This document shows, one piece after another, positions 1,447 to 62,839 of a stretch of DNA of 64,000 nucleotides. A model generated the notes under the pieces. The model was not told the origin of the DNA, did not search any database, and was given only the letters and a program-made list of their open reading frames with translations. A program made the translations under genes and the position numbers. The DNA is from an uncultured virus (IMG/VR IMGVR_UViG_3300025033_000016). Its lineage: Duplodnaviria > Heunggongvirae > Uroviricota > Caudoviricetes. Numbering within the stretch: the first letter of the stretch is position 1; every line of letters starts with the position of its first letter. The stretch is from the IMG/VR virus record IMGVR_UViG_3300025033_000016; one strand, given 5' to 3'.

Positions 1447-1718
1447 GTAAGTTTAAGCCTAAAGACTCGGTACGAGATACTAGAATGGACCGAGAGTGTC
1501 TAGTGTTGTGTGAGCATCCTAGTATGAAACGATACTATGCCGTAGCGACTGCCGACGGTGGGCTGTGCGTAGCTGATAGTGTTCATGCTGATTTACTTAT
1601 GCCGCACGTTAGTCCTGATACCATGTTTGACTGGACTTTAGAAGGAGATTTAGAGTTACTTGATAACCGCCATAAGCTTATAAGAGACTCACTGAGGGAG
1701 GATTTAGCTAATGAGTAA
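1443..1718 (+). CDS. Small KOW/SH3-like protein with shared C-terminal tag
   Basis: MSKFKPKD start; ends DNRHKLIRDSLREDLANE. Confidence 0.75.
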   Translation: MSKFKPKDSVRDTRMDRECLVLCEHPSMKRYYAVATADGGLCVADSVHADLLMPHVSPDTMFDWTLEGDLELLDNRHKLIRDSLREDLANE

Positions 1719-1965
1719 GTTTAAGGTAGGAGATACTATTCGTCACGGGCTAGCAGGTGAAATGATATTACTATTTAAATGCAAGTATAATAAAGATTAC
1801 TGGGTAGGGAAGCCACTTGATGATAGCGGCTATGGGTGGGACCTAGAGCCGAACTATCCAGGCAACATAGGCAAGGGCTGGAACGTAACCGATAACGAGA
1901 TTGTGTTAGTTGATAAACGACCTAGTGTAATAAGAGAAAGTTTAAGAGAGGATTTATTAAAATGA
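1711..1965 (+). CDS. Small KOW/SH3-like protein with shared C-terminal tag
   Basis: MSKFKVGD start, internal GYGW; ends DKRPSVIRESLREDLLK. Confidence 0.8.
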   Translation: MSKFKVGDTIRHGLAGEMILLFKCKYNKDYWVGKPLDDSGYGWDLEPNYPGNIGKGWNVTDNEIVLVDKRPSVIRESLREDLLK

Positions 1966-2198
1966 AACATGAATTAACGAGATACAATAACAGGAAGCTA
2001 TATTCCAAGTCAGCCAGTCAGTACGTAACGCTAGGTGACGTAGTGTTGATGGTTAAAGCTGGGGAGCAAGTACGCGTAGTGCAGTACGAAGGTGGTGAAG
2101 ATATCACTACTAGGGTGCTTAGACGAGCCTTTGCTAAAGTTAATGATGAAATTAGTGTAGAATATTTACATGACCTAATCAAGACTGAGGCTAACTAA
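1962..2198 (+). CDS. PhaR-like (PHA synthesis regulator) N-terminal DNA-binding domain protein
   Basis: RYNNRKLYS..SQYVTL.D...MVKAGE.V.V....GEDIT...L matches the PhaR N-terminal pattern. Confidence 0.8.
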   Translation: MKHELTRYNNRKLYSKSASQYVTLGDVVLMVKAGEQVRVVQYEGGEDITTRVLRRAFAKVNDEISVEYLHDLIKTEAN

Positions 2199-2199
2199 T

Positions 2200-2271
2200 A
2201 TGGGACTTTTAGTGTCGGCGGCTTTTGTTATAGTGTTCTTGGTATTTATATACGAGGTCATTAGTGGCTAA
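2200..2271 (+). CDS. Putative 23-aa single-pass membrane microprotein (MGLLVSAAFVIVFLVFIYEVISG)
   Basis: Fills the gap between two ORFs, GAGG upstream, 8-nt overlap with the next start; below the ORF-track cutoff. Confidence 0.5.
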   Translation: MGLLVSAAFVIVFLVFIYEVISG

Positions 2272-2455
2272 GTTAAAAGCCTACACCCCCATACGCATTA
2301 AGGGCCTTAAGAAGCTCAGCGGTGACGGGGATAGGTTCGATGCCTTCGGGGTATTCATTAAGGTAGTCATAGTTGGTGAGTTTAAGGGCATGGCGTTAGT
2401 GCGTATAGGTAGCACGCATCTACACGTACCACTAGATAAAATCGAGGAGTGTTGA
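2264..2455 (+). CDS. Hypothetical protein
   Basis: Co-directional ORF in a tightly packed operon, GAGG SD. Confidence 0.6.
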   Translation: MAKLKAYTPIRIKGLKKLSGDGDRFDAFGVFIKVVIVGEFKGMALVRIGSTHLHVPLDKIEEC

Positions 2456-3027
2456 GTATGAGTATAAAGATAGGGGACTTTGTTACTATAGATGTAGGCC
2501 CTTCTTCGATAGAGCCAATCAGGATTGAAGAAGCGCTTGTTTGTGGGCGGAGTATTAATAGCGGAAAATTCATTGTGGAATTGCCTAGGAGTACTGATAT
2601 TATTTTAGGTTGGTCGTCACTAGAGAGTAGCGACAATATTGAAATGACTCATCATGCTAGTTTCAGGTATCTATACATAGATAATGTCTTGGTATTCTTA
2701 GTAGACGATAGACCTAAAGCAGTAAGGGACGCCCTCAGAAAGGAGAGCTGGTACAAGTGTAAAGCTAGCGAGGCTGAGATAGGCGATATAGTATGTACAG
2801 AAGACTTATATCTAATGTATAAGCATGACGGCATACTTAGTCAGCTTAAACCTAATAGCAGCCTCGCTTATTATGTACATGATATTGAAGGTGGGTGTCT
2901 ATATTTAACCGATGACAGTAGAAAAGATCACGGACCTATCGTAAGTCTAAGTGACTGCGTATACAAATACGACAATAGAGCATCTGTAGTACGCGATAGT
3001 TTAAGGGAGGATTTAGATAATGAGTGA
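2449..3027 (+). CDS. Two-module protein carrying the shared tag twice (start probably 2458)
   Basis: KIGDFV...DDRPKAVRDALRKES then EIGDIV...DNRASVVRDSLREDLDNE. Confidence 0.75.
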   Translation: MLSMSIKIGDFVTIDVGPSSIEPIRIEEALVCGRSINSGKFIVELPRSTDIILGWSSLESSDNIEMTHHASFRYLYIDNVLVFLVDDRPKAVRDALRKESWYKCKASEAEIGDIVCTEDLYLMYKHDGILSQLKPNSSLAYYVHDIEGGCLYLTDDSRKDHGPIVSLSDCVYKYDNRASVVRDSLREDLDNE

Positions 3028-3241
3028 CGCAGTAAATAAACCCAAGCATTATAACTCTGGTAAACTAGAGGTGATAGACGTAATCAAAGATAGCTCTAGC
3101 TCTAGTGAGTTCGAGGGCTTTCTATCAGGTAATATAAAGAAGTACATACTAAGGTATCAATTTAAAAACGGCGTTGAAGATTTAAAAAAAGCTAAGGTCT
3201 ACTTGGAGTGGTTAATTCAGCATGTCGAAAACAAAGAGTAA
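3020..3241 (+). CDS. DUF3310 / T7 gp1.7-like protein
   Basis: DAVNKPKHY...GN..KY..R...KNG.EDLKKA..YL signature. Confidence 0.85.
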   Translation: MSDAVNKPKHYNSGKLEVIDVIKDSSSSSEFEGFLSGNIKKYILRYQFKNGVEDLKKAKVYLEWLIQHVENKE

Positions 3242-3518
3242 GTCACATAGTGAAGTAGAGCATTTAAACGGCTTAATACGCCAACTAAAGAAGCAGGTAA
3301 ATAAACTCACTCGTGATAACAGCCAGCTTAGAAAAGAACTAAACAGGAACCTAGATAAGAATACCAAGGAGTATGAGGATATGCCAGACGTACCTAAAAA
3401 TAAGCGTAGCGATAAAGGGGATTGTCCTGTATGCGGCGGCGTGCTTACTAGTATTGATCTAGGGGTGCGTAGTCTATTATCCTGCAAGGACTGTGAGTAT
3501 AGGAAGGTGTTAAAGTGA
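3222..3518 (+). CDS. Coiled-coil protein with C-terminal Zn ribbon
   Basis: Heptad N-terminus; CPVC...CKDC. Confidence 0.7.
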   Translation: MSKTKSKSHSEVEHLNGLIRQLKKQVNKLTRDNSQLRKELNRNLDKNTKEYEDMPDVPKNKRSDKGDCPVCGGVLTSIDLGVRSLLSCKDCEYRKVLK

Positions 3519-3811
3519 GTAAATTTAAGATAGGAGATAAGGTACATATTAACGACTACGGAGTGCGTGGAGTCGGAACCATAGTGTATAAGGACAAGAC
3601 CCATGACGATAGATTTCTATGCACAATAATTGAAGGCTGCCTTGGCTGGGGCTTGCATAATAAGGCAGGATCTTTACCCAAGGACTTTGATACATCTAAG
3701 CACAGCCCCAATGCTAAGATGTGGTGGGTTAATGAGGCTGAATTAGAGCTATTCGATACAAGATTCAAGATCATACGCGATTCGATTAGGGAGGACTTGT
3801 TAGGTGAGTAA
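3515..3811 (+). CDS. Tagged KOW/SH3-like protein, paralog of 24655..24951
   Basis: MSKFKIGD; shares DFDT.K..PNAKMWW; ends DTRFKIIRDSIREDLLGE. Confidence 0.8.
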   Translation: MSKFKIGDKVHINDYGVRGVGTIVYKDKTHDDRFLCTIIEGCLGWGLHNKAGSLPKDFDTSKHSPNAKMWWVNEAELELFDTRFKIIRDSIREDLLGE

Positions 3812-4196
3812 CACTAGAACTACTACATATAACCTATCTGTAACTAACTTGACTAGCTTAATGCGCACTATACGGGCTAATCAGAATAAGTTGTCTCCTG
3901 CTATAAGCGAGGGCATTCTCTATATTAGTGTTAATAGTAGTCAGTTTTGTGTCGAAAAGGATTTACCTGATAATAGAATCAGTACCGCGCTTATGCGCTG
4001 CCAAACCCGCTCTCGAAGCGCTAACTTTGACATTTACAAGCTAGAGAATAATATCATTGGTATGATAGAAGCTTTCTTACAAGAGAATAATGAACCAGAC
4101 GCAGTGGAAATAGTGAATACGCTACGAGGCTACACCAAAGCGCAGACTAGACTAGCGGTTAGGGACGGTATCGTGGAGGATTTAATGAATGACTAA
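3804..4196 (+). CDS. Hypothetical protein with variant tag
   Basis: Ends AVRDGIVEDLMND. Confidence 0.7.
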   Translation: MSNTRTTTYNLSVTNLTSLMRTIRANQNKLSPAISEGILYISVNSSQFCVEKDLPDNRISTALMRCQTRSRSANFDIYKLENNIIGMIEAFLQENNEPDAVEIVNTLRGYTKAQTRLAVRDGIVEDLMND

Positions 4197-4482
4197 GTTT
4201 AAGGTAGGTGACGTAGTAGAGGACACTAGGGATGGCCTTGTATATGACGTAGTTTATGTAGATAAGGATGAGCACTCTAGGTCCTGGGTTACTGGTATTC
4301 TAGTTGGAGGAGATTCGCAACAAGCTGGGGTACATATATCACTGCTAGGCCTACCTTCCGAGGTATTGAGCGGTCTACCTACTGATGCTTTTGGACATAA
4401 CCTGGAAGTTAGGTTTATTAGAAAGCACGATAAACGTCCTAAGCTAGTTAGAGACGCATTAAGAGAGGATTTGCTAAAATGA
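4189..4482 (+). CDS. Tagged KOW/SH3-like protein
   Basis: MTKFKVGD; ends DKRPKLVRDALREDLLK. Confidence 0.8.
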   Translation: MTKFKVGDVVEDTRDGLVYDVVYVDKDEHSRSWVTGILVGGDSQQAGVHISLLGLPSEVLSGLPTDAFGHNLEVRFIRKHDKRPKLVRDALREDLLK

Positions 4483-4799
4483 GTAAAGGTTACGTAGCAA
4501 GAATACGGTACTTGGCATATGGTAAGAATACGTTAATATCAAAGGAGTCCTTCGATACGGACAAGTTAGGTAGAATCAAGGTACTAATAGACCTGGATAA
4601 GCTAAGTTATGCCATGATAGACCCCGAGACGCATAAATCTAAGGCTAGCGGTAGAAGTAACACAAGGCACAGCGTTAAAAAGGCAGCTAAGGCACACCTA
4701 CGCAGCCTAGGAGTACAGTTTGCCCCTGAAAAGCGTATGTGGGGCTCTAGCGACCTTCAGAAGGCTCTAGAAGACATCGAAAAGGAGTTGATGGAATGA
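4479..4799 (+). CDS. Hypothetical basic protein
   Basis: ATGA overlaps at both ends. Confidence 0.7.
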   Translation: MSKGYVARIRYLAYGKNTLISKESFDTDKLGRIKVLIDLDKLSYAMIDPETHKSKASGRSNTRHSVKKAAKAHLRSLGVQFAPEKRMWGSSDLQKALEDIEKELME

Positions 4800-5428
4800 G
4801 GTACTTACTAGAAGATATTCCCGTACAAGCCAAGCTCGTGCTTCTGAGAGCACATATGAGGGGCGTATTCAATGATGCGGTAGCAGACCGGATTAAGGCT
4901 GTTTACAAGGCTATGCATAGGGGCTGGACTAAGCTCTGTAGAGTTGTGGCCTATGTTCCCACCATATGGCGTAATGAGGATTGGGACTTCACTTTTATAT
5001 ACGAGCTACTAGAGTTTAAACTTAAGCGGGTAGACAAGTGTCTACGAAGTGGTATGGCTGAATACGATCCTAAGGCTATGCGGCGTATCCTACTGCTACT
5101 CGACTACGTTAGTAATGAGAAAGCCTCTGAGCAAGCACACGCTGAACTAGAGGCTAAGGGTTTATATAGCGTGTGGGAAATTACCTCTCCCGATAGGGGC
5201 GTATATGAATCCGTATATTGGCATTTAAATACTGAGGACGTAGATAAGCTTAGAGAACTAGATGCTCCTATTAACCTAGACTTCGCTAGCTCCTTTAGAT
5301 CTGCTAGAAACAGTGCTGAATTCAGTAAACGCAAGACTATCTACGACAAGTATCAGAGAAGACATGAGCGCAGACGTACTAAGCTGTTTAAGTTATTAGC
5401 TGATAATATAGAAAGGTTTTGGGATTAA
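4796..5428 (+). CDS. Hypothetical phage protein
   Basis: IW...DWD...EL..FKL and C-terminal I..FWD pattern seen in phage hypotheticals. Confidence 0.65.
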   Translation: MRYLLEDIPVQAKLVLLRAHMRGVFNDAVADRIKAVYKAMHRGWTKLCRVVAYVPTIWRNEDWDFTFIYELLEFKLKRVDKCLRSGMAEYDPKAMRRILLLLDYVSNEKASEQAHAELEAKGLYSVWEITSPDRGVYESVYWHLNTEDVDKLRELDAPINLDFASSFRSARNSAEFSKRKTIYDKYQRRHERRRTKLFKLLADNIERFWD

Positions 5429-5429
5429 T

Positions 5430-5669
5430 ATGCTTAAATTTAAGGTGGGGGATATAGTAGAGCTGGGGATAGATATAGCTGGAATGAAAAGAGGCTTAGT
5501 AAAAATCACAAAAATAGATTACCCTGACCCTATGTTCCAGCTCCCTTACCGAGTTGCAGTCGAAGGTTTTCCTTATGTGCTATGGGTTAGGGAGGAGTGG
5601 TTACATGCCTTAGACAACCGACCTAGAGCAGTGAGGGCTTCGTTACGGGAGAATTTACTAGATGACTGA
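5430..5669 (+). CDS. Tagged KOW/SH3-like protein
   Basis: KFKVGD; ends DNRPRAVRASLRENLLDD. Confidence 0.8.
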   Translation: MLKFKVGDIVELGIDIAGMKRGLVKITKIDYPDPMFQLPYRVAVEGFPYVLWVREEWLHALDNRPRAVRASLRENLLDD

Positions 5670-5976
5670 TATAAAGTTTGAATTGGGGCGTAAATATGTT
5701 TTAGCTTCATGGGGACGCAAAAATATTATAGGAACTTATTGTGGAACTTTTAGTAGCAGTAGGTATAACAAAGCTCCTTTATTCATGCTAGAGTCTAGCA
5801 GCTCAGCGTTAGGCTGGGCTCGGTCTAACATGGGCAAGGCGAATATACTCCTACCACATGATAAGTATTCTCGATTTTTATATGAAGATAAGATTGGCAT
5901 TAGTGTAGTTGGTGCAGTAGATGAAAGGCCAAAAATAGTACGTGACAGCTTAAGGCAAGATCTACTAGAAGACTAA
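5662..5976 (+). CDS. Tagged small protein, last gene before the convergent polA
   Basis: Ends DERPKIVRDSLRQDLLED. Confidence 0.75.
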   Translation: MTDIKFELGRKYVLASWGRKNIIGTYCGTFSSSRYNKAPLFMLESSSSALGWARSNMGKANILLPHDKYSRFLYEDKIGISVVGAVDERPKIVRDSLRQDLLED

Positions 5977-8127
5977 CTACTTAGCCTCTGCTAAGTTATT
6001 GCCTACTACGGGGTCAGCTTCCATAGGCACTGTAATCAGCTTAGTTAGTTCGTTATTCTCCATGCAATCCTTTAGCAGCTTAGACGCTGCATCTACGTGC
6101 TCATCTTTTACTACTAAGATAACTTCATCATGTACAGTGGATACAATTTTAGCGTCTAAATCTCCTCGACGAGCCACGAAGTCTATCATAGCCTTATTAA
6201 CTAGACTGGCAGCTAGTGACTGAATCTGAAAGTTACGGGCGTTGTTAAGCTCGCCATTAGCTCTAATGAATATCTTTAACGGGTCCTCTACTCCTAGTAG
6301 CGGCCTTCGTACCTTGCGTTTAATCTCAAACTTATCAGGACGCTTAATGCCATACTTATCATGTAGTTCTTTTAGCATAGGAGTTCTACGTCTACGGCCT
6401 ACCTTAGACTCGATGTAGCCTTGCTTACGTGCTAGTATGAGTGTAGTGTTCATCCATTTAGCTAGGTCAGGATAGGCCGCTAGGTAAGCGTCTATGAGCG
6501 CCTTAGCTTCCTCTACTTCTATGTTAAGCGTCTTAGCTAGTTTATACTCCTGCATACCGTACGGGATGCCTAACGCAATCGGCTTAGTTTGCTGCCTTTT
6601 GTCCTTAGCTAACTTACCTAAGTAATTGGGAGCATCGGGGCGTGCTGAGTATTCGGTACTGTTAAACATGTCTACATAAATCTTAGAGTAGAAGTCTAAG
6701 CCCTCTGAGTATACGGCTTGCAGCTTAGGGTCGCCAGCTACTTCACTAAATATGCGAGGTTCCAAACTGCTAAAATCTAAAGAGATTAATTTATAGCCTA
6801 TAGGAGCTTTGAATCCTAGCTTAATTCTAATATCATCCCTAGGTAGGTTCTGAAAGTTAATCGGCTGCGCTGAGCTAAATCTTCCTCCAGTAGTGCCTGT
6901 CTGTTTAAAGGAGGTGTATATTCTACCGTCCTCATGGCCATTCAACACAGCCTCTACATAAGTAGATAGCACTTTCTTTTCTTTACTGCGATATAGCATG
7001 AGCTTTAATATTTCGCTGCTCTCGGAATATTCATTGACTAGCTTATCAATTACTGCGGCTGTAACTTGACGCTTACCCTTAGCAGTAGTGCCTTGCTCAG
7101 GTAATTCTAATACATCAAATAGTAGTACAGCTTTATCATCGTTACTATCGAAGTTAAACTTGCGCTTTAATCCTTTACTATCTAAAAATAACTTTAGTAT
7201 TAGATCACGGTAGTCGTCTAGAGGTTGACCCTCTTCCCAGCCGTGCTGCATTAATGCCTTGCCCATAACACTGCGCTTAGTAAACTTAGTCTTAGCAATC
7301 ACTGAGTCGATTTCATATTCGTTTACTTTATCTGCAATCATAGCATACATCTCATCCTCAATGGACTCAACGGTACCAGTAATATCTTTCTTTAAACCTT
7401 CGAAGTAGGGGATGTCTACGTCAAAACCTGTAGTGTTTAGCTCATATGTAACAGCATTAAGCGGCCACACTTCCTCATTCCATAGTTTAAGTAGCTTTAC
7501 GCTAGCTTCAATCTGAGGCCAGAGCTTTTCCCATAAACCGTAGGTGTAGATAGTATCATATGCGCCATAGGTTCCTAGAAGCAGCACATCGCCTTTATAA
7601 AACTCTTTGTTAGTAGCTTTCCATTCCCCACCGTTAGCTATAACACTAGCTTTTAAGTCATCCTGGGGAGCCGAGGCTTCCTCAGTTAAGTACTTAGTAG
7701 CTAAATCTTTTAGGCCGTGTGGTGGATTCTCGTCTACCGTGTGATGTATGAGCTGCGTGTCATATTTGAAATACTGCAAGGCTTCTATTCCTAGTGAAGT
7801 CTTGAGTATTCTAGCATCGAATGGTACGTTATGGCCTATGAGTCTTTGGGACTTAGTTACTTGCTCGGTTATCCAGCTTCGTACTAGTTCATCAGCTTCT
7901 AAACTCCAGGGGCTTACTAGAGAGTCTATCTCCTTGTTATACACTAATAGTGGTATGTAAATACCTAGGTCTGAGCTTGGTGAGAATGATACTCCAATGG
8001 CTATCGAGTCTTGTCTCAGTCCGTTAGTCTCAGTGTCTACTGCCAGTAACTTAGCGTTGCTAATCAAGTCTGAATATTCTAGTAGACGAGCGGTAGATGT
8101 GATTACTTCAACGATAGGCTTAGTCAC
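5977..8127 (-). CDS. polA: DNA polymerase family A (3'-5' exonuclease + polymerase)
   Basis: ExoI DTET, ExoII HNVPFD, TGTTGGRFSS..NFQNLP, motif A DFSSLEPR, motif B RQQTK...GIPYG, motif C VHDE. Confidence 0.95.
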   Translation of the reverse strand: MTKPIVEVITSTARLLEYSDLISNAKLLAVDTETNGLRQDSIAIGVSFSPSSDLGIYIPLLVYNKEIDSLVSPWSLEADELVRSWITEQVTKSQRLIGHNVPFDARILKTSLGIEALQYFKYDTQLIHHTVDENPPHGLKDLATKYLTEEASAPQDDLKASVIANGGEWKATNKEFYKGDVLLLGTYGAYDTIYTYGLWEKLWPQIEASVKLLKLWNEEVWPLNAVTYELNTTGFDVDIPYFEGLKKDITGTVESIEDEMYAMIADKVNEYEIDSVIAKTKFTKRSVMGKALMQHGWEEGQPLDDYRDLILKLFLDSKGLKRKFNFDSNDDKAVLLFDVLELPEQGTTAKGKRQVTAAVIDKLVNEYSESSEILKLMLYRSKEKKVLSTYVEAVLNGHEDGRIYTSFKQTGTTGGRFSSAQPINFQNLPRDDIRIKLGFKAPIGYKLISLDFSSLEPRIFSEVAGDPKLQAVYSEGLDFYSKIYVDMFNSTEYSARPDAPNYLGKLAKDKRQQTKPIALGIPYGMQEYKLAKTLNIEVEEAKALIDAYLAAYPDLAKWMNTTLILARKQGYIESKVGRRRRTPMLKELHDKYGIKRPDKFEIKRKVRRPLLGVEDPLKIFIRANGELNNARNFQIQSLAASLVNKAMIDFVARRGDLDAKIVSTVHDEVILVVKDEHVDAASKLLKDCMENNELTKLITVPMEADPVVGNNLAEAK

Positions 8128-8341
8128 TAAGTAAATCCTTTCTGAGTGAGTCCCTTACTACACTGGGACGTTCGTCTATTAATTCAACGTCGCCCTCGCG
8201 CACTAGAAAGCCAAGTACGCCTTCCTGGACTCGATAAATAAAGTCGTCCCTCTGCTCAACATCTATCTCAACTATTAGGAGCGTTTTAGACACTGGGTCG
8301 CTTTTAAACCTGATTCGATCTCCAACCTTGAATTTAGTCAC
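8120..8341 (-). CDS. Tagged KOW/SH3-like protein
   Basis: MTKFKVGD; ends DERPSVVRDSLRKDLLSD; overlaps the polA start. Confidence 0.8.
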   Translation of the reverse strand: MTKFKVGDRIRFKSDPVSKTLLIVEIDVEQRDDFIYRVQEGVLGFLVREGDVELIDERPSVVRDSLRKDLLSD

Positions 8342-8570
8342 CTAGTAAATTCTCCCTTAATGAGTCTCTGATTATACTAGGCCGCTGATCTGCTAGCCTA
8401 ATTTCAAAGCCCCGCCTTCGAATCCAAGGAGCTTCACCGTCAGGATTAGGGGATTTTCTAAGCAGCTTATATACGATAGTATCAAAGGTGCTGCGGCTAG
8501 ATATAACCTCAAACATCACATCGCCATAGGTTTGAGTCACCACTAAATCGCCCTTTTTAAAGTTATTCAC
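8334..8570 (-). CDS. Tagged KOW/SH3-like protein
   Basis: FKKGDLV; ends DQRPSIIRDSLRENLLGD. Confidence 0.8.
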   Translation of the reverse strand: MNNFKKGDLVVTQTYGDVMFEVISSRSTFDTIVYKLLRKSPNPDGEAPWIRRRGFEIRLADQRPSIIRDSLRENLLGD

Positions 8571-8883
8571 CTAACAAGTCCTTCCTTAAGGAGTCCCTAA
8601 CGGCCTTAGGCCGCGAGTCTACCGCCCGTAATATCTTTACATCAGCACTAAGTGCGAAATAGTAGGAGTTGGAATGGAATTTGAGGGGGACTTTAATAGC
8701 GTCTTTTATTTCAGGCTTATCATCTAATATCCAACCTAGATCATGCCGCTCAAACTCTAAAATAAAAGCATTAGGTAGTTCTACCTGTCGCCCTACTACG
8801 TAAGCTAGATAACGATGACCGCCATACCAAAATAGCTCGCACTCATAAGTTTTGCCTATCTCTAGCTTATCTAGCTCAATCAT
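8563..8883 (-). CDS. Tagged small protein
   Basis: LEIGKTY, LGW; ends DSRPKAVRDSLRKDLLGE. Confidence 0.8.
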   Translation of the reverse strand: MIELDKLEIGKTYECELFWYGGHRYLAYVVGRQVELPNAFILEFERHDLGWILDDKPEIKDAIKVPLKFHSNSYYFALSADVKILRAVDSRPKAVRDSLRKDLLGE

Positions 8884-9226
8884 TCAGTAAATCTCCCCTC
8901 AAAGCTTCATTAACGATGAACTTAGTGTATACGTCCTGCTCTATTTTATAAAAAGTAGTTCCTATTAAGTTTAAAAAGTCTGAGGACTCTCCAAGATGGC
9001 TAAGTATTATAGGCTTTGTAGGCTCAACTCCATCATACCATAATAGCTTAGTATAAATAGCTGCTTGTTTAACTACTTGAGCACCTAACTTAAATGCCTC
9101 ATCTTCACTAATGACTCTCTCAACTCCCAGATCAATTAACAATAAATTACCGCAGCTAACTTTCCATACTGGAGTAGGTTTACCGTCTAAACGCTTTCGA
9201 AGCTCATCCGCTGTATACTTACTCAT
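8876..9226 (-). CDS. Hypothetical protein with variant tag
   Basis: Ends IVNEALRGDLLND. Confidence 0.7.
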   Translation of the reverse strand: MSKYTADELRKRLDGKPTPVWKVSCGNLLLIDLGVERVISEDEAFKLGAQVVKQAAIYTKLLWYDGVEPTKPIILSHLGESSDFLNLIGTTFYKIEQDVYTKFIVNEALRGDLLND

Positions 9227-9507
9227 TAGTTTAGCAACTCTCCCGTATCCATTATCATAGTATCTTCTACTTCTTCATGCAATAGTATAAACATAATGCT
9301 AGCATGAGCTACTGCCATTACAGCTTCGGAAGACTCCTCTGGCTTTAGATACACATATAACTCATCACAATCATTGAAGTAGCCCGTTAGAGTCGTAGTA
9401 GGTTCTTCTATGGCCACGCCATCCTCAGACTGAGCTAGTACAGTTTGCGGTCTATTAATGATTATGTCTACTAGCTCACCTTGGTAGGCTATTAAGAGCT
9501 TATTCAC
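9226..9507 (-). CDS. Acidic hypothetical protein
   Basis: Coupled ORF within the operon. Confidence 0.65.
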   Translation of the reverse strand: MNKLLIAYQGELVDIIINRPQTVLAQSEDGVAIEEPTTTLTGYFNDCDELYVYLKPEESSEAVMAVAHASIMFILLHEEVEDTMIMDTGELLN

Positions 9508-10186
9508 TTAACAAGTCGCTCCGTAGGGAATCTCTTACCGATGTATGCACTAACGCTTGTTCTAGCGCAGGGTCGTGACCTCCATACATACCAAGCTCGC
9601 GTTGTATAGCCGCGTCTAACTCTTCAGTAGTGCCTAGGGTGCAACTATTTCTGCTTATAAAGCTACTTATAACATCAGTTACAAACTTATGCTTAGCTGC
9701 ATTAGAGGGTAGCTTATAGCCACGCTCTAGAAACTTAAAGGCTCTGTAGATAGCGTTTAAATTATTATACGGTCTGGCAGGTTCTAGTACCTTATTTACT
9801 ACGTGCTCGGGATGTAATACTTTTAGTGTGTACATCTCTGGGTTGAAGCTATTCATTGTATGTTTAAAATCAAAGTTTGTTATGTTCTGTGGGTTTAGGA
9901 GCTTTATTAGCTGTAAGGTTTTACCTTTAAAACTTAACGTATGCGCATTGTCAGTTTCTATAATTAGTCTAGCTCCAGCGGCCTGTAGACCCTTTATTAC
10001 TTTATCTGTAGTCTGCCCGTGATATACTGTATCATACATATCGTAATCATTAGGCGTCTCGCCTTGTATAAGAGATGCAATACAGCCGCCTTTAAATCTT
10101 ACAGGAGGTTTTCCTAGGTCTACCCACAAGTTATGTAAGTGTTCTTTTACTTTAGTTTCTAGCTCTTCACTAATACCAGGGGTCAT
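9500..10186 (-). CDS. Nucleotidyltransferase-like protein (Pol beta superfamily head) with tag
   Basis: GGCIASL....PNDYD, NFDF, R..KF.ERGY; ends SVRDSLRSDLLSE. Confidence 0.6.
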   Translation of the reverse strand: MTPGISEELETKVKEHLHNLWVDLGKPPVRFKGGCIASLIQGETPNDYDMYDTVYHGQTTDKVIKGLQAAGARLIIETDNAHTLSFKGKTLQLIKLLNPQNITNFDFKHTMNSFNPEMYTLKVLHPEHVVNKVLEPARPYNNLNAIYRAFKFLERGYKLPSNAAKHKFVTDVISSFISRNSCTLGTTEELDAAIQRELGMYGGHDPALEQALVHTSVRDSLRSDLLSE

Positions 10187-13257: not shown

Positions 13258-13269
13258 ATATTTCCCCTT

Positions 13270-16248: not shown

Positions 16249-16254
16249 GCATAG

Positions 16255-20048: not shown

Positions 20049-20633
20049 CTATTCGTTAGCTAAGACTTCATCTGCTAACCCCTCTTTAACCGCATCCTCG
20101 GCTGTATATGGCCTGTCAAACAGCTGTAATTTATCTAGTGCTTTTTTATTAAATCTAGGCTTTTTATGCTTGATTCTTTGTACTAAAATATTATCTATCT
20201 TAGCTAGATACTTCCGCTCAAAGTTACGCCAAGATTCTACGTCTGCCTCATGTCCTGAGTACCCTACCTGCCCTTTATGTATCATTACGATGGAGTGTTC
20301 TGATACTATCCTGTGATCGGCTGCTTGTAGGATAACTGCCCCCATACTACTTGCACTACCTCGTACAATAATAGTAATGTGATTAGCCGCTTGCATAATT
20401 GCGTCGTATATAGCCATTCCTGCATATATCTCTCCGCCGTCATGATTCATTATGATGGTTATAGGCTTATCTCCAGCAGGAGCGCTAGAGTCCAGAGCAT
20501 GGAGATCTTTTAAGAACTTATGTAGCCTATCTGATTCAGACTCGTTCTCTGATAGCGGATTAAGCCACATAGTACGTCTCCCTAAGTCCACCCCTAGTAA
20601 GTACATCTTCTCTAGCTGCTCTAGTCTACTCAT
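20049..20633 (-). CDS. clpP: ClpP-like serine protease
   Basis: PITIIMN..GG...GMAIYD, G.ASSMG (catalytic Ser), VMIH, A.DAV..GL.D. Confidence 0.85.
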   Translation of the reverse strand: MSRLEQLEKMYLLGVDLGRRTMWLNPLSENESESDRLHKFLKDLHALDSSAPAGDKPITIIMNHDGGEIYAGMAIYDAIMQAANHITIIVRGSASSMGAVILQAADHRIVSEHSIVMIHKGQVGYSGHEADVESWRNFERKYLAKIDNILVQRIKHKKPRFNKKALDKLQLFDRPYTAEDAVKEGLADEVLANE

Positions 20634-21127
20634 TTCAATAAATCCTCTCTAAGACTGCTACGTACCGCAGTTGCTGATAATTGCTTTTTATATGCTTCAG
20701 TCATTTTTACGTCAAGCTCATATGACGTGTGCTCAAAGTAGTCAAAGCCTAATACGTCAGATTCCTCTTTACTTGGCGTTACTGAATCAATCCACCTAAC
20801 TACTTCATATTGAGCAGTGAACCTGTTAACAGTTACTATCCTGATATAAACTGTAGCTTTTCCGTAAGGTTTGCTTATTATATCACCTGCTTTATACTGT
20901 GGTTTTAGCGTCCAGTCACCTAAGCATATAAACCTAAGGATGCTTACCCATTTGAGGTTCAGGACGTTCTTGCGTATTAAATAACTGGCTACTAAGGTAG
21001 AGGGTACTCCTACCAGTGTTAGTAGGTTTATAGGCGGCTGCTTTACACTGCGATCTACTACTACCACTGCGGCGGCTAGTAGATTAACAATTACCCAAAC
21101 TACCGATACTACATACAACCAAGTCAT
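20630..21127 (-). CDS. Membrane protein with KOW-like domain and tag
   Basis: Hydrophobic N-terminus, YKAGDII; ends AVRSSLREDLLK. Confidence 0.7.
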   Translation of the reverse strand: MTWLYVVSVVWVIVNLLAAAVVVVDRSVKQPPINLLTLVGVPSTLVASYLIRKNVLNLKWVSILRFICLGDWTLKPQYKAGDIISKPYGKATVYIRIVTVNRFTAQYEVVRWIDSVTPSKEESDVLGFDYFEHTSYELDVKMTEAYKKQLSATAVRSSLREDLLK

Positions 21128-21504
21128 TTTAGCAAATCCTCTCTCAAAGCACCTCTGACTACTTGTGGTCTAGGGTCTATTTTCTTGCAATGCTTTTCAT
21201 CGTGCCACCCATAAACACCGTGTGGGGTTACGCATTCCGGTAATACTGCGGTTTCTGTCGTGCTGAAATCAAAGAAATCTATGCCGACTGGGGGGTAGGT
21301 AGACATTAGTTTACCGCTACCTTCAACGTATTGTAGTAGTACGTAATCATCTGGCTGCGGGAAAGTGTCGTTGGGGCGTGTCTCTATAGCTTTGCCGTAA
21401 GTATAATCCACTACCTCTTTACAGTCTTCCCATCTAGCTACTACTCTAAATAGGCAAATATAGCCTGCAAAAGTCACTACATCTCCAGCCTTTAATTTAC
21501 TCAC
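21124..21504 (-). CDS. Tagged KOW/SH3-like protein
   Basis: KLKAGDVV; ends DPRPQVVRGALREDLLK. Confidence 0.8.
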   Translation of the reverse strand: MSKLKAGDVVTFAGYICLFRVVARWEDCKEVVDYTYGKAIETRPNDTFPQPDDYVLLQYVEGSGKLMSTYPPVGIDFFDFSTTETAVLPECVTPHGVYGWHDEKHCKKIDPRPQVVRGALREDLLK

Positions 21505-21814
21505 TAGCTAAATCCTCCCTTAACGAGTCTCGCACTGCCTTGGGGCGTAGGTCTACTAATCTTAACTCCTCCTCATTTGCCCAGGTATAGTTTTTATCTC
21601 CATTACTATTTATATAAGCAGCTAAATCGCAGCTGAGGTCTACTTCGGTAACAGTTAATAGAGATGCTAGGGTTTGGTAGTCGGGCGTTAGAAGCGTGGG
21701 GTAAACGATTAACACAGTGCCATCGGCAATATCATAGCAGACTACTTCAAATAGCTGATCTGGAAGCCATCTACCATCTGACCTTACTATATCCCCTGGC
21801 TTAAACTTATTCAC
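21497..21814 (-). CDS. Tagged KOW/SH3-like protein
   Basis: KFKPGDIV; ends DLRPKAVRDSLREDLASE. Confidence 0.8.
   Translation of the reverse strand: MNKFKPGDIVRSDGRWLPDQLFEVVCYDIADGTVLIVYPTLLTPDYQTLASLLTVTEVDLSCDLAAYINSNGDKNYTWANEEELRLVDLRPKAVRDSLREDLASE
21505..21544. repeat. 40-bp exact direct repeat, copy 1 (copy 2 at 24952..24991)
   Basis: TAGCTAAATCCTCCCTTAACGAGTCTCGCACTGCCTTGGG present at both sites; encodes the tag. Confidence 0.9.
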
Positions 21815-22730: not shown

Positions 22731-23011
22731 TGAAAGTTTTAAAAAACATCTGGGCGTGGGTAATTGCTGTTATCGGCTTTTTACTCGTAGCTTTAAAGAT
22801 TAGCAACTCTAAAAAGAACGCAGCTGAAGCTAAGGCTGCCTTGAGCGATACTAATAACAAACATGCTGAGCTAGAAGGTAGTCGCGCTAATATAAGAGAA
22901 AATCTAATCTACTTAGAAAAGAAAAAACAGGAGCTGATAAATTCTCAGCCCCCGTCGGGATTAACTCCTAAGCAAGTCGAAGCTTATTGGGCTTCTAAAG
23001 AGCGTAAATAG
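22730..23011 (+). CDS. N-terminal TM coiled-coil protein (i-spanin-like topology)
   Basis: Hydrophobic segment followed by heptads. Confidence 0.5.
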   Translation: MKVLKNIWAWVIAVIGFLLVALKISNSKKNAAEAKAALSDTNNKHAELEGSRANIRENLIYLEKKKQELINSQPPSGLTPKQVEAYWASKERK

Positions 23012-23754
23012 CTTTCCAGCATCTCAACTAAATCCTCTTTAGGAACTGCTATCATCCACCCTGCGTCATTACCCGCATAGATTACGCCTACTACATTACC
23101 GAAGAAGTTTACTGTAGGAGAGCCGATACTACCTCCCAGACCATGCACCGTAGTATGTAAGGACTCACTTACCCTAATACATACTACCATACCTTGAATT
23201 ACTACGGCTACAGTGCCAGTCTTATTTATACAGTAATCATGATCTTCCTTAGATAAAATCAAGGCTAATAAGGTATTAGACTTATGTAGTCCGATGAGTT
23301 GACCTTTGGACAAGGTAAACGGCATTACAGCTGGATGCCCTACTGCCATGACCTCTTCTCCTAGCTCATAGCGGCTAGCTAACTGCAAACCTTTTATTGA
23401 GTGTTCAGTTTGAATCTCAAGTAAGCATAAATCAGCGGGGCTTTTTACATGCGTCTTTTTTAAGGCTAATATGCGCTCTTTTCCATTAAGCGTATAGGTA
23501 GCCTGCGCTGCATCCTCTTGTAGATCACAAATGTGATCGTTGGTGACAGCTAAGGTTCTACCTTTATACTCTAGCACAAAGCCCGTTCCTACTGGATATC
23601 CGTGTTTATTTTTCATTAACAAGGTACTACTCTGTGTTTTACTTCTAATGTAATTGGAATGATACTGTGGAGCCTTTAGTACCATAAAAGCCCCTGCTAT
23701 AAAGCTTATGGTCAGTAGTCCTACAATAAATATATTTTCTCTAAGTCTAGTCAT
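22984..23754 (-). CDS. Membrane-anchored trypsin-like serine protease; catalytic Ser apparently Ile
   Basis: GTGF, TNDHIC, DLCLL, GHP, GGSIGSP...G.VVGV. Confidence 0.8.
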   Translation of the reverse strand: MTRLRENIFIVGLLTISFIAGAFMVLKAPQYHSNYIRSKTQSSTLLMKNKHGYPVGTGFVLEYKGRTLAVTNDHICDLQEDAAQATYTLNGKERILALKKTHVKSPADLCLLEIQTEHSIKGLQLASRYELGEEVMAVGHPAVMPFTLSKGQLIGLHKSNTLLALILSKEDHDYCINKTGTVAVVIQGMVVCIRVSESLHTTVHGLGGSIGSPTVNFFGNVVGVIYAGNDAGWMIAVPKEDLVEMLESYLRSLEAQ

Positions 23755-23998
23755 CTAATAAATCCTTTCGTAACGCAGCTCTAACTGCTTGTGGTCTTTC
23801 GTCTTGTACTAAATAATCCTCGAACGGTTGATATTCAACGATCCCTAGTGATGTAGCCAGCTTTAGTTTGTTAGGCATAGTAGTTACCACCTTACCTACT
23901 GGTATATATCGCGGATGGTTGGGGATTTTTGTATACACCCACTGTCCTTGTTTTAGGTGTACACCTTTAATCCATATGTAGTTATTAGGGTCCGACAT
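23747..23998 (-). CDS. Tagged small protein
   Basis: LKQGQWV; ends DERPQAVRAALRKDLLDD. Confidence 0.75.
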   Translation of the reverse strand: MSDPNNYIWIKGVHLKQGQWVYTKIPNHPRYIPVGKVVTTMPNKLKLATSLGIVEYQPFEDYLVQDERPQAVRAALRKDLLDD

Positions 23999-24004: not shown

Positions 24005-24658
24005 CTAGAACTCCGTAACCTGATGGGCTAGTAAATTCAGCTTTTCAATTACTCTGCTAGGGTAGAAGGCGGCATTGGCTACAGTAACCTTACTTACACC
24101 TTCTTGCTTAGCCCTAGCAATTACTATAGCCAAAGCATCCGTTAAGTCATGTGGTATTTCCCGATTCTTCAGTGTAATGTTAGATTTAATCTCAGTAGGC
24201 AGTAGTGGGATATAGGAACGCACGCAGTCTGCTGTAGGCTTCTTATAGTCTCGCTTAGTCTTGCCGTTTACTTTTTCAGTAATAGCTTTGATTCCTAAGA
24301 TACCTCTCCAACTAGAGGCTGACAGCTCGTTATAAGCTACTCGGTGCTTAGCGCAGGACTTCTCAACGAATGCGTTGATGGTAGGAATCACAGCGGCAGA
24401 GCCTAACTGTTTAGGATTCATAAAATAAGCTTCAGTAGTAGCCTCTTCTGTAATCAAGTCGCTAGCTGCTCCTCCCACTAATAAGTCTAGTCCCGAGTCC
24501 ATGTACAAGAAGCGCTGCCCTCTAGACCACTTAGTTCTAGTCCACAACATACCCGCTGCTTTTATGTACAATTCATCTGGATTTAGGTCTGCTACTACAT
24601 ATGCAAGGTGACTAGCTGAGGGGTCAATTGCTAATAAAGTTTTACGCTTCTTGCTCAT
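24005..24658 (-). CDS. ruvC: RuvC-like Holliday junction resolvase
   Basis: LAIDPS, EAYF, W...G, D.TDALAI. Confidence 0.7.
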   Translation of the reverse strand: MSKKRKTLLAIDPSASHLAYVVADLNPDELYIKAAGMLWTRTKWSRGQRFLYMDSGLDLLVGGAASDLITEEATTEAYFMNPKQLGSAAVIPTINAFVEKSCAKHRVAYNELSASSWRGILGIKAITEKVNGKTKRDYKKPTADCVRSYIPLLPTEIKSNITLKNREIPHDLTDALAIVIARAKQEGVSKVTVANAAFYPSRVIEKLNLLAHQVTEF

Positions 24659-24951
24659 TTTAGTAGGTCCTTTCTTAACGCAGCTCTGACTGCTTGAGGA
24701 CGGCTGTCTATTAGAGTTAGTTGAGCCTCATCAGCCCACCACATCTTAGCATTGGGGTTATACTTAGTCGTATCAAAATCAGACTCATCGCCTAAGTGGG
24801 GGGACCGGTGCAACTCCCATCCGTACTTTCCTTTGGAAATTTTACATAGTAGCCCATATGGTTTTCTCTTTTTATACACCACAATACCTACTCCCACTTC
24901 TCTATCAGAGTAGCGTATTACCACCTCATCTCCTACCTTAAACTTACTCAT
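24655..24951 (-). CDS. Tagged KOW/SH3-like protein, paralog of 3515..3811
   Basis: MSKFKVGD; ends DSRPQAVRAALRKDLLK. Confidence 0.8.
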   Translation of the reverse strand: MSKFKVGDEVVIRYSDREVGVGIVVYKKRKPYGLLCKISKGKYGWELHRSPHLGDESDFDTTKYNPNAKMWWADEAQLTLIDSRPQAVRAALRKDLLK

Positions 24952-25327
24952 TAGCTAAATCCTCCCTTAACGAGTCTCGCACTGCCTTGGGTCGATTATC
25001 TGGCATTAGAGTTATGCACTGAAAAAAGCTCATGTCGTCCCTAGTTCTAACAAACTCGTCACCTACTTTAATACTAGAATAGGCTTCTATGTGACTCGTC
25101 TTAAGCTTAGCATCTAACCTAAACGTGCAAATCTTTGAGTCCATATCTACTAAAGTTAACTCCCACACATCTATAATAGAAGCACCCTTCAAGTTATTAT
25201 GTAAAATACTTACGAAGTTAGTATCATCATATAAGTATTTAGCTCCAATTTTTAAATTGGATGGGATTACGCGTATTGTCGGATATGGGAAGGTATAGCT
25301 AGATTTAAACATACTATTAATTGACAT
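24944..25327 (-). CDS. Tagged small protein
   Basis: LKIGAKY; ends DNRPKAVRDSLREDLANE. Confidence 0.75.
   Translation of the reverse strand: MSINSMFKSSYTFPYPTIRVIPSNLKIGAKYLYDDTNFVSILHNNLKGASIIDVWELTLVDMDSKICTFRLDAKLKTSHIEAYSSIKVGDEFVRTRDDMSFFQCITLMPDNRPKAVRDSLREDLANE
24952..24991. repeat. 40-bp exact direct repeat, copy 2
   Basis: Identical to 21505..21544. Confidence 0.9.
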
Positions 25328-59133: not shown

Positions 59134-59649
59134 TTATTCCTTTATATAAGTCTTTGAAGGGACTACTTCTTCTTGATCCTGATACTTTCCGTTATAGAGC
59201 ATATCAATAGATCCTTCAGGCTTATGGAAGTATAGCTGCCCTATCTTCATATTAGGGTAAATAAAGGTAGGCTTAACTACAGTAATCTCAAGGACCCAGA
59301 AGCCTCTAAAACCAATGTCTCCAAATCCTGCCGTAGCATGTACACTAATGCCTAGCCTAGCTAGAGAGGACTTGCCTGTAATCATGGGAACTACGTTGTG
59401 GGACTCAGTCCACTCATTAGTTCTAGCTAAGTATAGCTCATGTGGATGTAATACCATGCCTTCTGACGGAATCTCCCTAATCTCTACTTTATTGTCCACT
59501 CTAGGGTCTAATACTAGAGGTTTATACACTTTAATCTCGGGGTGTAGGGTAACGTCTACGGAGTTGGCATTGATATTAGAGCGCTTAATCGGATTGATTA
59601 CAATAGTGCCGTCTTTTAAAGACTTTTTAATCGCTGCTGCTGTTAACAT
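59134..59649 (-). CDS. dcd: dCTP deaminase
   Basis: NSVDVTL, GKSSLARLG, AGFGD.GF.G..VLE, IGQ, Y.GKYQ. Confidence 0.9.
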   Translation of the reverse strand: MLTAAAIKKSLKDGTIVINPIKRSNINANSVDVTLHPEIKVYKPLVLDPRVDNKVEIREIPSEGMVLHPHELYLARTNEWTESHNVVPMITGKSSLARLGISVHATAGFGDIGFRGFWVLEITVVKPTFIYPNMKIGQLYFHKPEGSIDMLYNGKYQDQEEVVPSKTYIKE

Positions 59650-61028: not shown

Positions 61029-61182
61029 AAGAACTACTTCCTGTGAGGCGGTTGAGAAGTTTTGATAGTTTATTGAGCCGAGGACGGCGATTACCAGACT
61101 CCAATTTCTTAGGTTTATCGCCATATACTGACTTTAGCATACCTTCTAGGTTTTTAACACTATTAACTGGATTATTAGCCAT
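61003..61182 (-). CDS. 59-aa basic protein resembling the capsid N-terminus
   Basis: NLEGMLKSVYGDK versus QLDGLFKKVYADK; ATG follows the AACAAAT motif. Confidence 0.55.
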   Translation of the reverse strand: MANNPVNSVKNLEGMLKSVYGDKPKKLESGNRRPRLNKLSKLLNRLTGSSSYGSKEDIK

Positions 61183-61195
61183 ACCCTTGATTTGT

Positions 61196-61459
61196 TTAGT
61201 CTGCTGTATTGAGGTCTTCAACCAAGGCGTCTCTAACTAACTTCCTAGTATAAGCCTCATAGCTCATTAAATCAGTTTCTTCAACGCCATAACGCCTATC
61301 TCTATCATCTAGCTGCTCTGACATTATTAAGTATCTGAACTTATTATCGTGACCCCTGGCTGACACTAATACTCTAGCAGGTCCGTACACTATCTCACCG
61401 TTATGCAGTAATACTACCCGCTCGTCGTAATTAAATAAAGGCTTTACTTGTATTGTCAT
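61196..61459 (-). CDS. Small protein with variant tag
   Basis: AAGGAGGT SD; ends LVRDALVEDLNTAD. Confidence 0.75.
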   Translation of the reverse strand: MTIQVKPLFNYDERVVLLHNGEIVYGPARVLVSARGHDNKFRYLIMSEQLDDRDRRYGVEETDLMSYEAYTRKLVRDALVEDLNTAD

Positions 61460-61497
61460 GCAGTTACCTCCTTGTAACTAGCTATATCGTAATTAGT

Positions 61498-61914
61498 TTA
61501 CACTTGTCTAGTGTCGGCTACTATCTGCAGCCTCTTACTAGATTCTAGCCTATTCTTGTTATCCATTATCACGACATCCAATGCTTTCTTAGGATTCCGA
61601 TAGAAGCCTGTAGTGCAATCATTGCCTACCTTAAGGAATAGGCCGCTCCATCTCGTGTGGAAGAAGCTTAGGATAGCCGAGTCAGCTCTAAGCCAGCCTT
61701 GTCCAGCATCGAACTCTGCGAACCTCTTATTGATTGATTTAGCTGTAACCTTGTTAGAACTCGGTACAGCGCATATAACGCGTACTTCTCTTCCAACCTT
61801 ACTACAAAGGGCATGTAGAGCGCTACTTAGCTGCTTACCTCCCTTAGACCGCATAACTCTATAGCTAAATCCATCAGTCACTAAGTAAATTACATGCTTG
61901 TCTAATATTAACAT
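61498..61914 (-). CDS. Hypothetical protein
   Basis: Promoter TTGCAT-N17-TATACT at about 61928-61956 places the start at MLILD. Confidence 0.5.
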   Translation of the reverse strand: MLILDKHVIYLVTDGFSYRVMRSKGGKQLSSALHALCSKVGREVRVICAVPSSNKVTAKSINKRFAEFDAGQGWLRADSAILSFFHTRWSGLFLKVGNDCTTGFYRNPKKALDVVIMDNKNRLESSKRLQIVADTRQV

Positions 61915-62485
61915 AAGCTTATCTCTAAGTATAACACGTATACAAATAAAATGCAACCCTTATTCACTTTCTTATTGAAAATGATACAAAAATATGATAT
62001 AATCTAGTTATAGATTGTTTAATTCGCAAAGTTAAACACATATGCAGCATACCAAAGAGCTGTTGCAGCATAAACAAACAATGCAGCAAATAAACATGAA
62101 CAATGTTGCATAAACAAATCCAATAAATGATGCCATTGCAGCGAATGCATAGCAACAATCACAGATTTTATAGCGATTATATCTTTAGGCTGAAGGGGAT
62201 AGTTATACCCTACTTTTAGGGTGTAAATTCATAGCATTTATGAATAGATCTTACTTAGCTTGTATGCTAATAAATTCAGCTACTTACAAGTACACCCCGA
62301 TAGGCAATGAATACATTAGTGAATAGATAACACCTTAGTACTGCGAAACTAACGATACCTATGATTTTATATTGCGTGACGCTTAGTGTTATGCGATGTA
62401 CTAAGTGCAATCATCCCCCCAGTTCCGCAACACCCCCCTTCTTTTTTAGGTAGCTTAATCTGGAAGACTGTGGTATAGTTTGTAT

Positions 62486-62839
62486 ATGAGTAACAACTGG
62501 TGGAAAGGTTTATCTAAAGAGCAGATAGCTGGTATGAGTTTTACGCTTGCGGAGAGCAGCGCTTTGTATAAATCAAGAGCTTACACTTTTCCAGAAAGTA
62601 ACGTGTTTAGAGTTGTAGCGATCCCTAAACGTACAGCTATGGAGTTTTTTATAATCCAGCCAGCAGATAGCTTAGGTCTTAACGAAGGCTGGAAATTCGA
62701 GCATGTCAGTAGTTATAACGTATTAACTAGCTTTGATCCTAAAAAGGGGTGCTGGGGATTAAAGCCTACAGAGTTAGTGCCTGTAGATCTCAGGCATAGA
62801 TTAGTCCGAGATAGCTTAAGAGAGGATCTGTTAAAATGA
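62486..62839 (+). CDS. Tagged small protein
   Basis: Extended -10 TGGTATAGT 6 nt before ATG; ends DLRHRLVRDSLREDLLK; overlaps the thyX start. Confidence 0.75.
   Translation: MSNNWWKGLSKEQIAGMSFTLAESSALYKSRAYTFPESNVFRVVAIPKRTAMEFFIIQPADSLGLNEGWKFEHVSSYNVLTSFDPKKGCWGLKPTELVPVDLRHRLVRDSLREDLLK

Follow-up and report, generated by a model that had tools for sequence, protein, structure and literature searches.

The 64,000-nucleotide window analysed here (bases 1-64000 of the 78,078-bp IMG/VR record IMGVR_UViG_3300025033_000016, an uncultured phage of the Caudoviricetes whose genome is circular, with a 127-bp end overlap) raises the question of why so many of its small open-reading frames (ORFs) end in the same short peptide, and whether that tail serves the protein that carries it or the gene that follows. 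A sequence-only reading had taken the tail as a translational-coupling module that supplies the ribosome-binding site (RBS) of the next gene. The consensus D-x-R-P-x-x-V-R-D-S/A-L-R-E/K-D-L-L-x(x) ends 21 ORFs of the window, and eight further tagged ORFs and one out-of-frame relic lie in the rest of the genome, for a total of 29 tagged genes. The copy ending at 4196 was overlooked by a hidden Markov model (HMM) and recovered with a regular expression; VRDGIVEDLMND is the divergent tail of that ORF (3804-4196), and ORF 2458-3027 carries a second, internal tail copy at 2704-2745. The core peptide pattern occurred 30 times in the genome and in none of 30 codon-block shuffles, a comparison that demonstrates repetition only, since the pattern was derived from these same copies. 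The explanation we favour, at odds of about one in two, is that this tail of ~16 residues, carried by 29 mostly unrelated small proteins, docks on a phage-encoded pair of a MoxR ATPase and a peptidase with a von Willebrand factor A (vWA) domain, and that a Shine-Dalgarno (SD) sequence is overlaid on it at gene overlaps.

Peptide conservation and the Shine-Dalgarno overlay

As the sequence-only reading had it, 19 of the 21 tags in the window overlap the next start, six by 4 nt and 13 by 8 nt, and the type of overlap followed the end of the tail in all 19: the tails with 4-nt ATGA overlaps (stops 1965, 4482, 20630, 21124, 24655, and 62839) all end in LLK, and those with 8-nt overlaps all end in xE or xD. 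The non-overlapping tags are those at 5976, convergent with polA, and at 61196, with a 71-nt gap. Ten of the coupled tails feed another tagged ORF and nine feed untagged genes, and the named recipients were right, namely polA (8127), clpP (20633), a ruvC-like gene (24658), thyX (62836), a trypsin-like protease gene (23754), DUF3310 (3020), and PhaR-N (1962). Overlap is frequent in this genome even without a tag: among co-directional gene pairs, counted from a gene list that we curated, stop and start overlapped in 23/26 tagged versus 36/78 untagged pairs (Fisher p = 1.7e-4), and the overlap was exactly 4 or 8 nt in 22/26 versus 10/78. An IMG/VR contig 99.98% identical to this phage reads ACG at the clpP start (L003:4112-4125, window 20630-20633), with loss of the tail stop and read-through of three further residues; this is either a variant or an assembly error.

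Selection on the peptide was assessed by asking how often copies that agree in a residue differ synonymously in its codon, against a background of genome codon usage. Core codons varied close to this background (Ser 0.82 versus 0.80, Arg 0.74 versus 0.76, Asp 0.48 versus 0.49), the tail serine being encoded by both TCN and AGY, and the two leucine codons fell somewhat below it (0.62 and 0.60 versus 0.75). The clear exception was the glutamate codon, at 0.13 versus 0.50, which is GAG in 18 of 19 copies. The peptide was retained in five uncoupled copies and in the internal copy. Because synonymous change is near background and uncoupled copies keep the peptide, the tail, judged by its codons, is conserved at the peptide level first.

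The claim that the tag codons spell an SD sequence was borne out. The third base is G in all 23 coupled Glu/Lys codons, the uncoupled copies having CAA, GAA, GAC, GAT, and AAA, and G-ending codons make up 15/24 at the SD arginine versus 8/29 at the upstream arginine (background 0.195). Genome-wide, SD pairing energies, scored against an anti-SD motif, were at or below -5.3 kcal/mol in 25/25 coupled copies and at or above -3.7 kcal/mol in 5/5 uncoupled copies (p = 2.6e-4), with the relic, and a copy followed by an ORF of just 32 codons, counted as coupled. In 25/25 coupled copies, 7-8 nt separate the Asp/Asn codon from the start codon, and further SD forms in the tails are GGAGAA, GGAG, GGGGAG, and GTGGAGGA. 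The coupled copies thus carry an SD overlay, which is under nucleotide-level selection only where a start codon follows and which likely starts the next gene where stop and start overlap. Having 25 coupled and five uncoupled copies of one peptide, the phage is a natural experiment on dual coding of unusual clarity. A similar split was observed in the cultured Vibrio phage phiKT1024, which has tails of its own: four tails with 4- or 1-nt overlaps paired at -6.0 kcal/mol or below and the other 13 at -3.2 kcal/mol or above, and 12 of the 17 have no overlap with the gene that follows.

Overlapping gene pairs with an intragenic SD and termination-reinitiation are known, as outlined in PMC6728339, and the present overlaps resemble them in being of ATGA type with the SD inside the upstream gene. 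They differ from the pairs outlined there in that the SD lies in a repeated tail selected as protein, that 13 of 19 overlaps are of 8 nt, and that coupling is predicted from sequence. An RBS inside a gene overlap is by itself ordinary biology; the tail is the important part.

The tail itself was found in this phage and hardly elsewhere. A pattern scan of IMG/VR returned only near-identical copies of the same phage, the tail HMM had no credible match in 45 helicase-anchored loci (best E 1.3), and the query was the sole match of a region search. In a search of 1.84 billion representatives with the tail profile, 23 of 24 matches were proteins of this phage and the remaining one was internal to a 914-aa protein. 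No description of such tails was found in the literature searched, in which subscription journals were mostly uncovered and supplements unopened.

Operon positions of the tagged genes

The sequence-only reading also described each tagged ORF as a self-contained cassette that can insert in front of any gene and is then hard to delete. Gene order was compared with distant kin that lack this tail (G005, G022, G043, G030, and G032), and insertion-like positions were seen at two sites, before polA and before ruvC, where tagged ORFs split pairs that are adjacent in three untagged relatives. A small gene directly adjoins polA in G005, G022, and G043 (gaps +2, -1, and +3); here, four tagged ORFs separate its probable counterpart, the resident gene 9226-9507, from polA and a fifth lies between 9226-9507 and the helicase gene. 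In the same three relatives, a Zn-ribbon-like gene stands directly before ruvC, clpP intervening in G030; here, the Zn-ribbon-like gene 3222-3518 is followed by tagged ORF 3515-3811, and ruvC is preceded, on the opposite strand, by the closest paralogue of 3515-3811. This arrangement would fit insertion followed by inversion, and synteny breaks in the distant-kin comparison are flanked by tagged paralogues. Of the syntenic loci whose comparison had been proposed, those before polA and ruvC lack tagged ORFs in the three untagged distant kin; no close relative shares the tail. Across positions 1-20000, the only differences among contigs of four runs were single-letter changes and 1-nt indels, with no gain or loss of a tagged gene, and two joints ending at tails (1734-3686 and 1734-4445, with 30-38 letters on the short side) were rejected as evidence of gain or loss, being explained by the repeats at 21.1-21.5 and 24.7-25.0 kb. 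The neighbour of the trypsin-like protease gene (22984-23754) in G005, G022, and G043 is dCTP deaminase-like and homologous to 59134-59649; in this phage, the protease gene stands behind ruvC with a tagged ORF in front.

The first tagged ORF of each array begins at a gap of -17 to +6 behind an untagged gene, positions that fit entry at a resident start codon. A tagged gene may thus take the resident RBS at its start and pass a new RBS on at its end. Since it would inherit one site and supply another, entry into an operon at a start codon would be cheap and would aid the spread of the tagged genes, as a side benefit and not as the purpose of the tail. That such cassettes are hard to delete found no support. 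Because gene 9226-9507 carries an SD of its own at its end, with a TAATG overlap, loss from start to start before polA would bring back the layout of the relatives, and the spacing would survive in-register exchange between tails; both points count against the idea. No preference for essential genes emerged either: tails of G030 and G032 feed other core genes, among them those for an exonuclease and the small subunit of ribonucleotide reductase.

These positions, together with the selection on the SD, the fixed spacing, and an out-of-frame relic, would be expected if the module existed to supply the next RBS and the peptide were a by-product, as first proposed. In the relic, at genome 73800-73855, tail DNA, SD, and ATGA survive but are out of frame, and it looks like a tagged gene that lost its body and was fused to the next gene; it lies outside the window inside an ORF (genome 73738-74160, L051:11738-12160) that has its own strong SD. 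However, SD and spacer account for about five codons and not for the 11 upstream, which vary synonymously, and both the peptide retained in uncoupled and internal copies and the predominance of non-overlapping tails in phiKT1024 argue against coupling as the purpose of the module, as does the SD overlap that the resident gene 9226-9507 already has. We therefore consider this account improbable.

The repeats also recall the PeSL cassettes of T4-type phages, promoter/stem-loop DNA that, as outlined in PMC2839356, likewise sits at junctions of small non-essential genes with signs of rearrangement. A DNA recombination cassette of this kind, shuffling genes, would be in line with junction repeats that reach 68 bp at 91% and 51 bp at 94% identity and with the tagged paralogues, on opposite strands, at both ends of the broken Zn-ribbon/ruvC pair. 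Unlike the PeSLs of that account, the tail repeat is coding, with variable third positions, and is selected as peptide and unstructured: no consensus pair of a conserved RNA structure was found in 16 of the 21 window copies, the tail sequence had no match in Rfam, and in positions 1-10500 promoter-like sites (18 versus 21.9 expected from shuffles) and terminators (4 versus 6.1) showed no excess, so that a sigma70-like promoter and a stem-loop are both lacking. This leaves recombination the least probable of the explanations considered, and very improbable in itself.

Tagged proteins and a candidate reader of the tail

The 29 bodies without their tails fell into 22 clusters. They gave no Pfam family above cut-off and no blastp match in relatives at E 1e-3, phmmer matches were only weak, and weak PHROG matches were obtained for two of the 21 window ORFs; Atlas matches for 3515-3811, below 0.9, serve as a lead only. 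A model of ORF 24655-24951 (predicted local distance difference test score 80) is a five-stranded SH3/Tudor-like barrel in which the tail is predicted to form the final helix (residues 86-97). The best fold matches of the barrel (CAP-Gly, Tudor, chromo, and KOW domains; Z 6-7.3) reflect a common fold that indicates no function. The larger ORF 9500-10186 had no Pfam match in a local library from which PF26128 is absent, and the protein resembles Gad2 (Atlas features 0.96, template-modelling scores 0.61/0.77), PolyA_pol/CCA folds matching too. Gad2 is, as outlined in 10.1101/2023.05.01.538930, an anti-Gabija protein with a predicted nucleotidyltransferase domain; inhibition of Gabija was demonstrated only for the homologues studied there.

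Sixteen tagged ORFs align with a common KFKxGD start, as would be expected if the tail were simply the last helix of one expanded small-barrel family and no portable tag. But the many clusters, the 228-aa nucleotidyltransferase-like protein and several ORFs without a barrel start that are tailed all the same, and the fold matches of the model, which mostly cover residues 1-88 and omit the tail helix, make such a family an improbable explanation.

If the tail is a peptide signal, the candidate reader, from gene association, would be the vWA-peptidase/MoxR pair encoded next to the first tagged array. The vWA gene has its true start across the circular junction, with a full product of 416 aa, in which HExxH and the residues of a metal ion-dependent adhesion site (MIDAS; D288, S290, S292, T348, and D370) are invariant among 36 sequences, and its model resembles integrin I/vWA domains. 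When C-termini were clustered de novo, three of the 45 helicase-anchored loci proved to carry their own, different tails, and the peptidase-vWA gene matched 5/45 of these records, including all three tail-bearing ones. The association was assessed on all five vWA-positive and 13 of 40 vWA-negative records (near-complete ones, of which seven are missing the final 2-8 kb). G000, G030 (QFDxDLEELL), G032 (EIxxEVKDLL), and G045 (ELxxAIYE) each carry a family of 29-39 tails and all have the MoxR/vWA pair; such families are thus present in 4/6 genomes with the pair versus 0/13 without (Fisher p = 0.004, kinship ignored), where 0/13 refers to families of at least 10 at the first clustering setting. 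In each of these four genomes, tagged genes are found no more than ~2 kb downstream of the pair. A survey of 104 vWA-anchored loci, with those below 4 kb left out, added five families of 8-21 tails (L139, L143, L157, L160, and L235), the sisters L157 and L160 sharing the tail end LG(V/I)K. In a tree of 30 vWA proteins that we picked, the clade holding the vWA protein of this phage (99/99) had a tail family of at least eight in 7/7 members, which establishes an association of tails with this vWA clade. The closest relatives by capsid protein (50-53%) have neither the pair nor tails. In phiKT1024, the end x-[PAC]-E-x-h-[ILV], a pattern composed after viewing the sequences, is found on 17/22 small ORFs near the vWA gene.

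Several side observations concern these families. Contig L235, from a genome labelled Methanobacterium sp., encodes 21 tailed ORFs as well as a MoxR protein and a close vWA homologue, and looks like a phage contig in the bin. G045 has a second, four-member tail family, DSLEYAIF, beside its 29-member one (L063-L065, stops 21560-22891). Around a related vWA gene in L154 and L162, many ORFs of 50-70 aa end, by eye, in a terminal leucine. Eight paralogues of G005 (L074, L077-L078) form a C-terminal cluster that was not counted as a tail family and whose ends we take to be ankyrin-like. No common tail was seen among the 29 ORFs read in Aeromonas phage phiA009, which has a vWA match.

A number of findings weigh against docking on the pair. 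G024 and G033 have the pair, with a distant vWA, and no tail family; at a more sensitive setting, G025 has ~14 xFKLELIx tails and G039 ~6, with no pair found in either. Many vWA loci outside the clade have no cluster in their flanks, the only part covered, apart from a few weak ones by eye. The tails of other phages have no common acidic position (L157: NIxKVNKYLGVK), which weakens a role for the MIDAS. Nor is the SD overlay general: in eight other tag-bearing phages, an SD was present in 83/134 coupled versus 18/42 uncoupled copies pooled (p = 0.03), the effect being absent in L143 and L139 and G030 showing no difference. Finally, the pair and the tagged genes could travel as one module without interacting.

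This last point belongs to another account, in which the tail is a peptide signal read by a host protein, the capsid, or the tagged proteins themselves, and the link with the pair reflects a co-inherited accessory module. Tails without the pair in G025 and G039, and the pair without tails in G024 and G033, speak for it, and the phage offers ClpP-like and trypsin-like proteases besides. But both proteases were rejected as readers on account of their homologues in many untagged relatives, genome-specific tails are more in keeping with a partner that varies from phage to phage than with a conserved host protein, and the tagged genes stand outside the structural module. We regard this account as possible, if rather unlikely. 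The tails of G025 (L116:7645-15700) and G039 (L128:9755-13896; KSHLP/HHWPxW) adjoin peptide-ligase genes, ATP-grasp genes in both and also amidoligase and glutamine amidotransferase genes in G025, and are possibly a second pairing of tail and machine.

Under the favoured explanation, docking on the MoxR/vWA pair, the tail would bind the vWA domain, perhaps through its conserved aspartate at the intact MIDAS, while the variable front domains would select host targets, the whole set forming an interchangeable library of adaptors for one remodelling or protease machine. The tagged proteins are favoured as adaptors over clients only, and their targets in the host are conjectural. SspB is an adaptor of the AAA+ unfoldase ClpX with a tethering tail, and phage SPO1 reportedly encodes an adaptor-like protein for ClpCP. 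With NorQ-NorD as the MoxR-type comparison system, as outlined in PMC13036017, these provide the working model of a target-binding domain with a short docking segment; known phage adaptors are single genes that use a host machine, whereas the present proposal involves a library of adaptors and a MoxR-type machine encoded by the phage itself. Jumbo phages have a MoxR AAA+/metallopeptidase-vWA pair with a proposed role in virion assembly (PMC7824862). The same two adjacent genes (phrog_1297 and phrog_1314), with zincin and MIDAS motifs, are present here, where they head arrays of tagged accessory genes; tagged small proteins are not mentioned in the available text of that report. The vWA domains of MoxR pairs capture peptides at the MIDAS, according to PMC7159879, whose FxSxx-COOH modules share with this phage a zincin peptidase and, near MoxR-vWA, small proteins that diverge fast but are better conserved in their C-terminal peptide. 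The modules outlined there are defence loci of bacteria in which the peptidase is encoded separately and the precursor is small; unlike them, the present system comprises ~30 genes across a phage genome, a peptidase fused to vWA, and genome-specific tails. No VMAP/FtsH ternary system or radical-SAM modifier was found among the 51 window proteins covered by the Pfam scan, the other ORFs being unscanned for these.

Genomic setting and meaning

Coordinates are collected in the table below. The window encodes polA, a primase-helicase, thyX, portal, terminase, and the ClpP-like and trypsin-like proteases. The DNA-binding domain encoded at 1962-2198 is that of a PHB/PHA accumulation regulator (PF07879, E 1.3e-15), and two ORFs on either side of the capsid gene (48417-49949 and 51267-51989) are putative homing endonucleases. 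A Bdellovibrionota host is weakly suggested by the capsid and portal, which among cultured phages come closest to a Silvanigrella phage record (24-28% identity). The runs containing the phage are aquifer and hot-spring metagenomes, most of them flagged as possible sources.

Table 1 Tagged genes, their recipients, and the candidate reader pair (window coordinates unless stated)
Feature	Coordinates	Strand	Remarks
Metallopeptidase-vWA (DUF2201)	19..1212	+	Pfam DUF2201_N, DUF2201; phrog_1314; HExxH and DxSxS/T/D invariant, 36 homologues
MoxR ATPase	genome 76791-77894		Just upstream of vWA gene, outside window; AAA_5 E 1e-5; phrog_1297 E 2.5e-50
Tagged ORF	1443..1718	+	8-nt overlap, next tagged ORF
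Tagged ORF	1711..1965	+	4-nt overlap, PhaR-N gene (1962-2198)
Tagged ORF, two tail copies	2458..3027	+	8-nt overlap, DUF3310 (3020-3241)
Untagged Cys-rich (Zn-ribbon-like) gene	3222..3518	+	Homologue directly before ruvC, three relatives
Tagged ORF, closest paralogue of 24655-24951 (E 7e-21)	3515..3811	+	8-nt overlap
Tagged ORF, divergent tail	3804..4196	+	8-nt overlap
Tagged ORF	4189..4482	+	4-nt overlap, untagged 4479-4799
Tagged ORF	5430..5669	+	8-nt overlap
Tagged ORF, uncoupled, convergent with polA	5662..5976	+	Peptide kept, SD lost
DNA polymerase A	5977..8127	-	GTG start 8 nt inside tail
Tagged ORF feeding polA	8120..8341	-	Tail pattern
Tagged ORF	8334..8570	-	8-nt overlap
Tagged ORF	8563..8883	-	8-nt overlap
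Tagged ORF, short tail	8876..9226	-	First of four between resident 9226-9507 and polA
Untagged resident gene	9226..9507	-	Probable counterpart abuts polA in three relatives (weak, E 0.05-2.8, plus position)
Tagged 228-aa nucleotidyltransferase-like, Gad2-resembling	9500..10186	-	8-nt overlap; Atlas 0.96, TM 0.61/0.77
ClpP-like protease	20049..20633	-	ATG in ATGA overlap with tail
Three chained tagged ORFs (21497-21814, 21124-21504, 20630-21127) feeding clpP	20630..21814	-	
Trypsin-like protease	22984..23754	-	Start 8 nt inside tail
Tagged ORF feeding trypsin-like protease	23747..23998	-	Tail pattern
RuvC-like resolvase	24005..24658	-	ATGA overlap with tail; phrog_159, E 1.4e-5
Tagged ORF feeding ruvC	24655..24951	-	Modelled SH3/Tudor-like barrel and C-terminal helix
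Tagged ORF	24944..25327	-	8-nt overlap
Tagged ORF, uncoupled	61196..61459	-	Divergent peptide kept, SD absent
Tagged ORF feeding thyX (62836-63495)	62486..62839	+	ATGA overlap

The tail marks about a quarter of the small ORFs and gives a testable role to a widespread phage gene pair whose function had been guessed. If it docks on the MoxR/vWA machine, the tagged ORFans become defined candidates for host-targeting or anti-defence factors, for which the cultured phiKT1024 offers an experimental entry, and orthogonal pairs of tail and reader are potentially useful as tools. A bolder and tentative extension is a plug-in counter-defence platform, in which one MoxR ATPase/zincin-vWA machine would be served by dozens of swappable adaptors with co-evolving, genome-specific, dual-coded docking helices; if true, this would be an analogue, in viruses of prokaryotes, of F-box adaptor libraries, with a built-in insertion signal.

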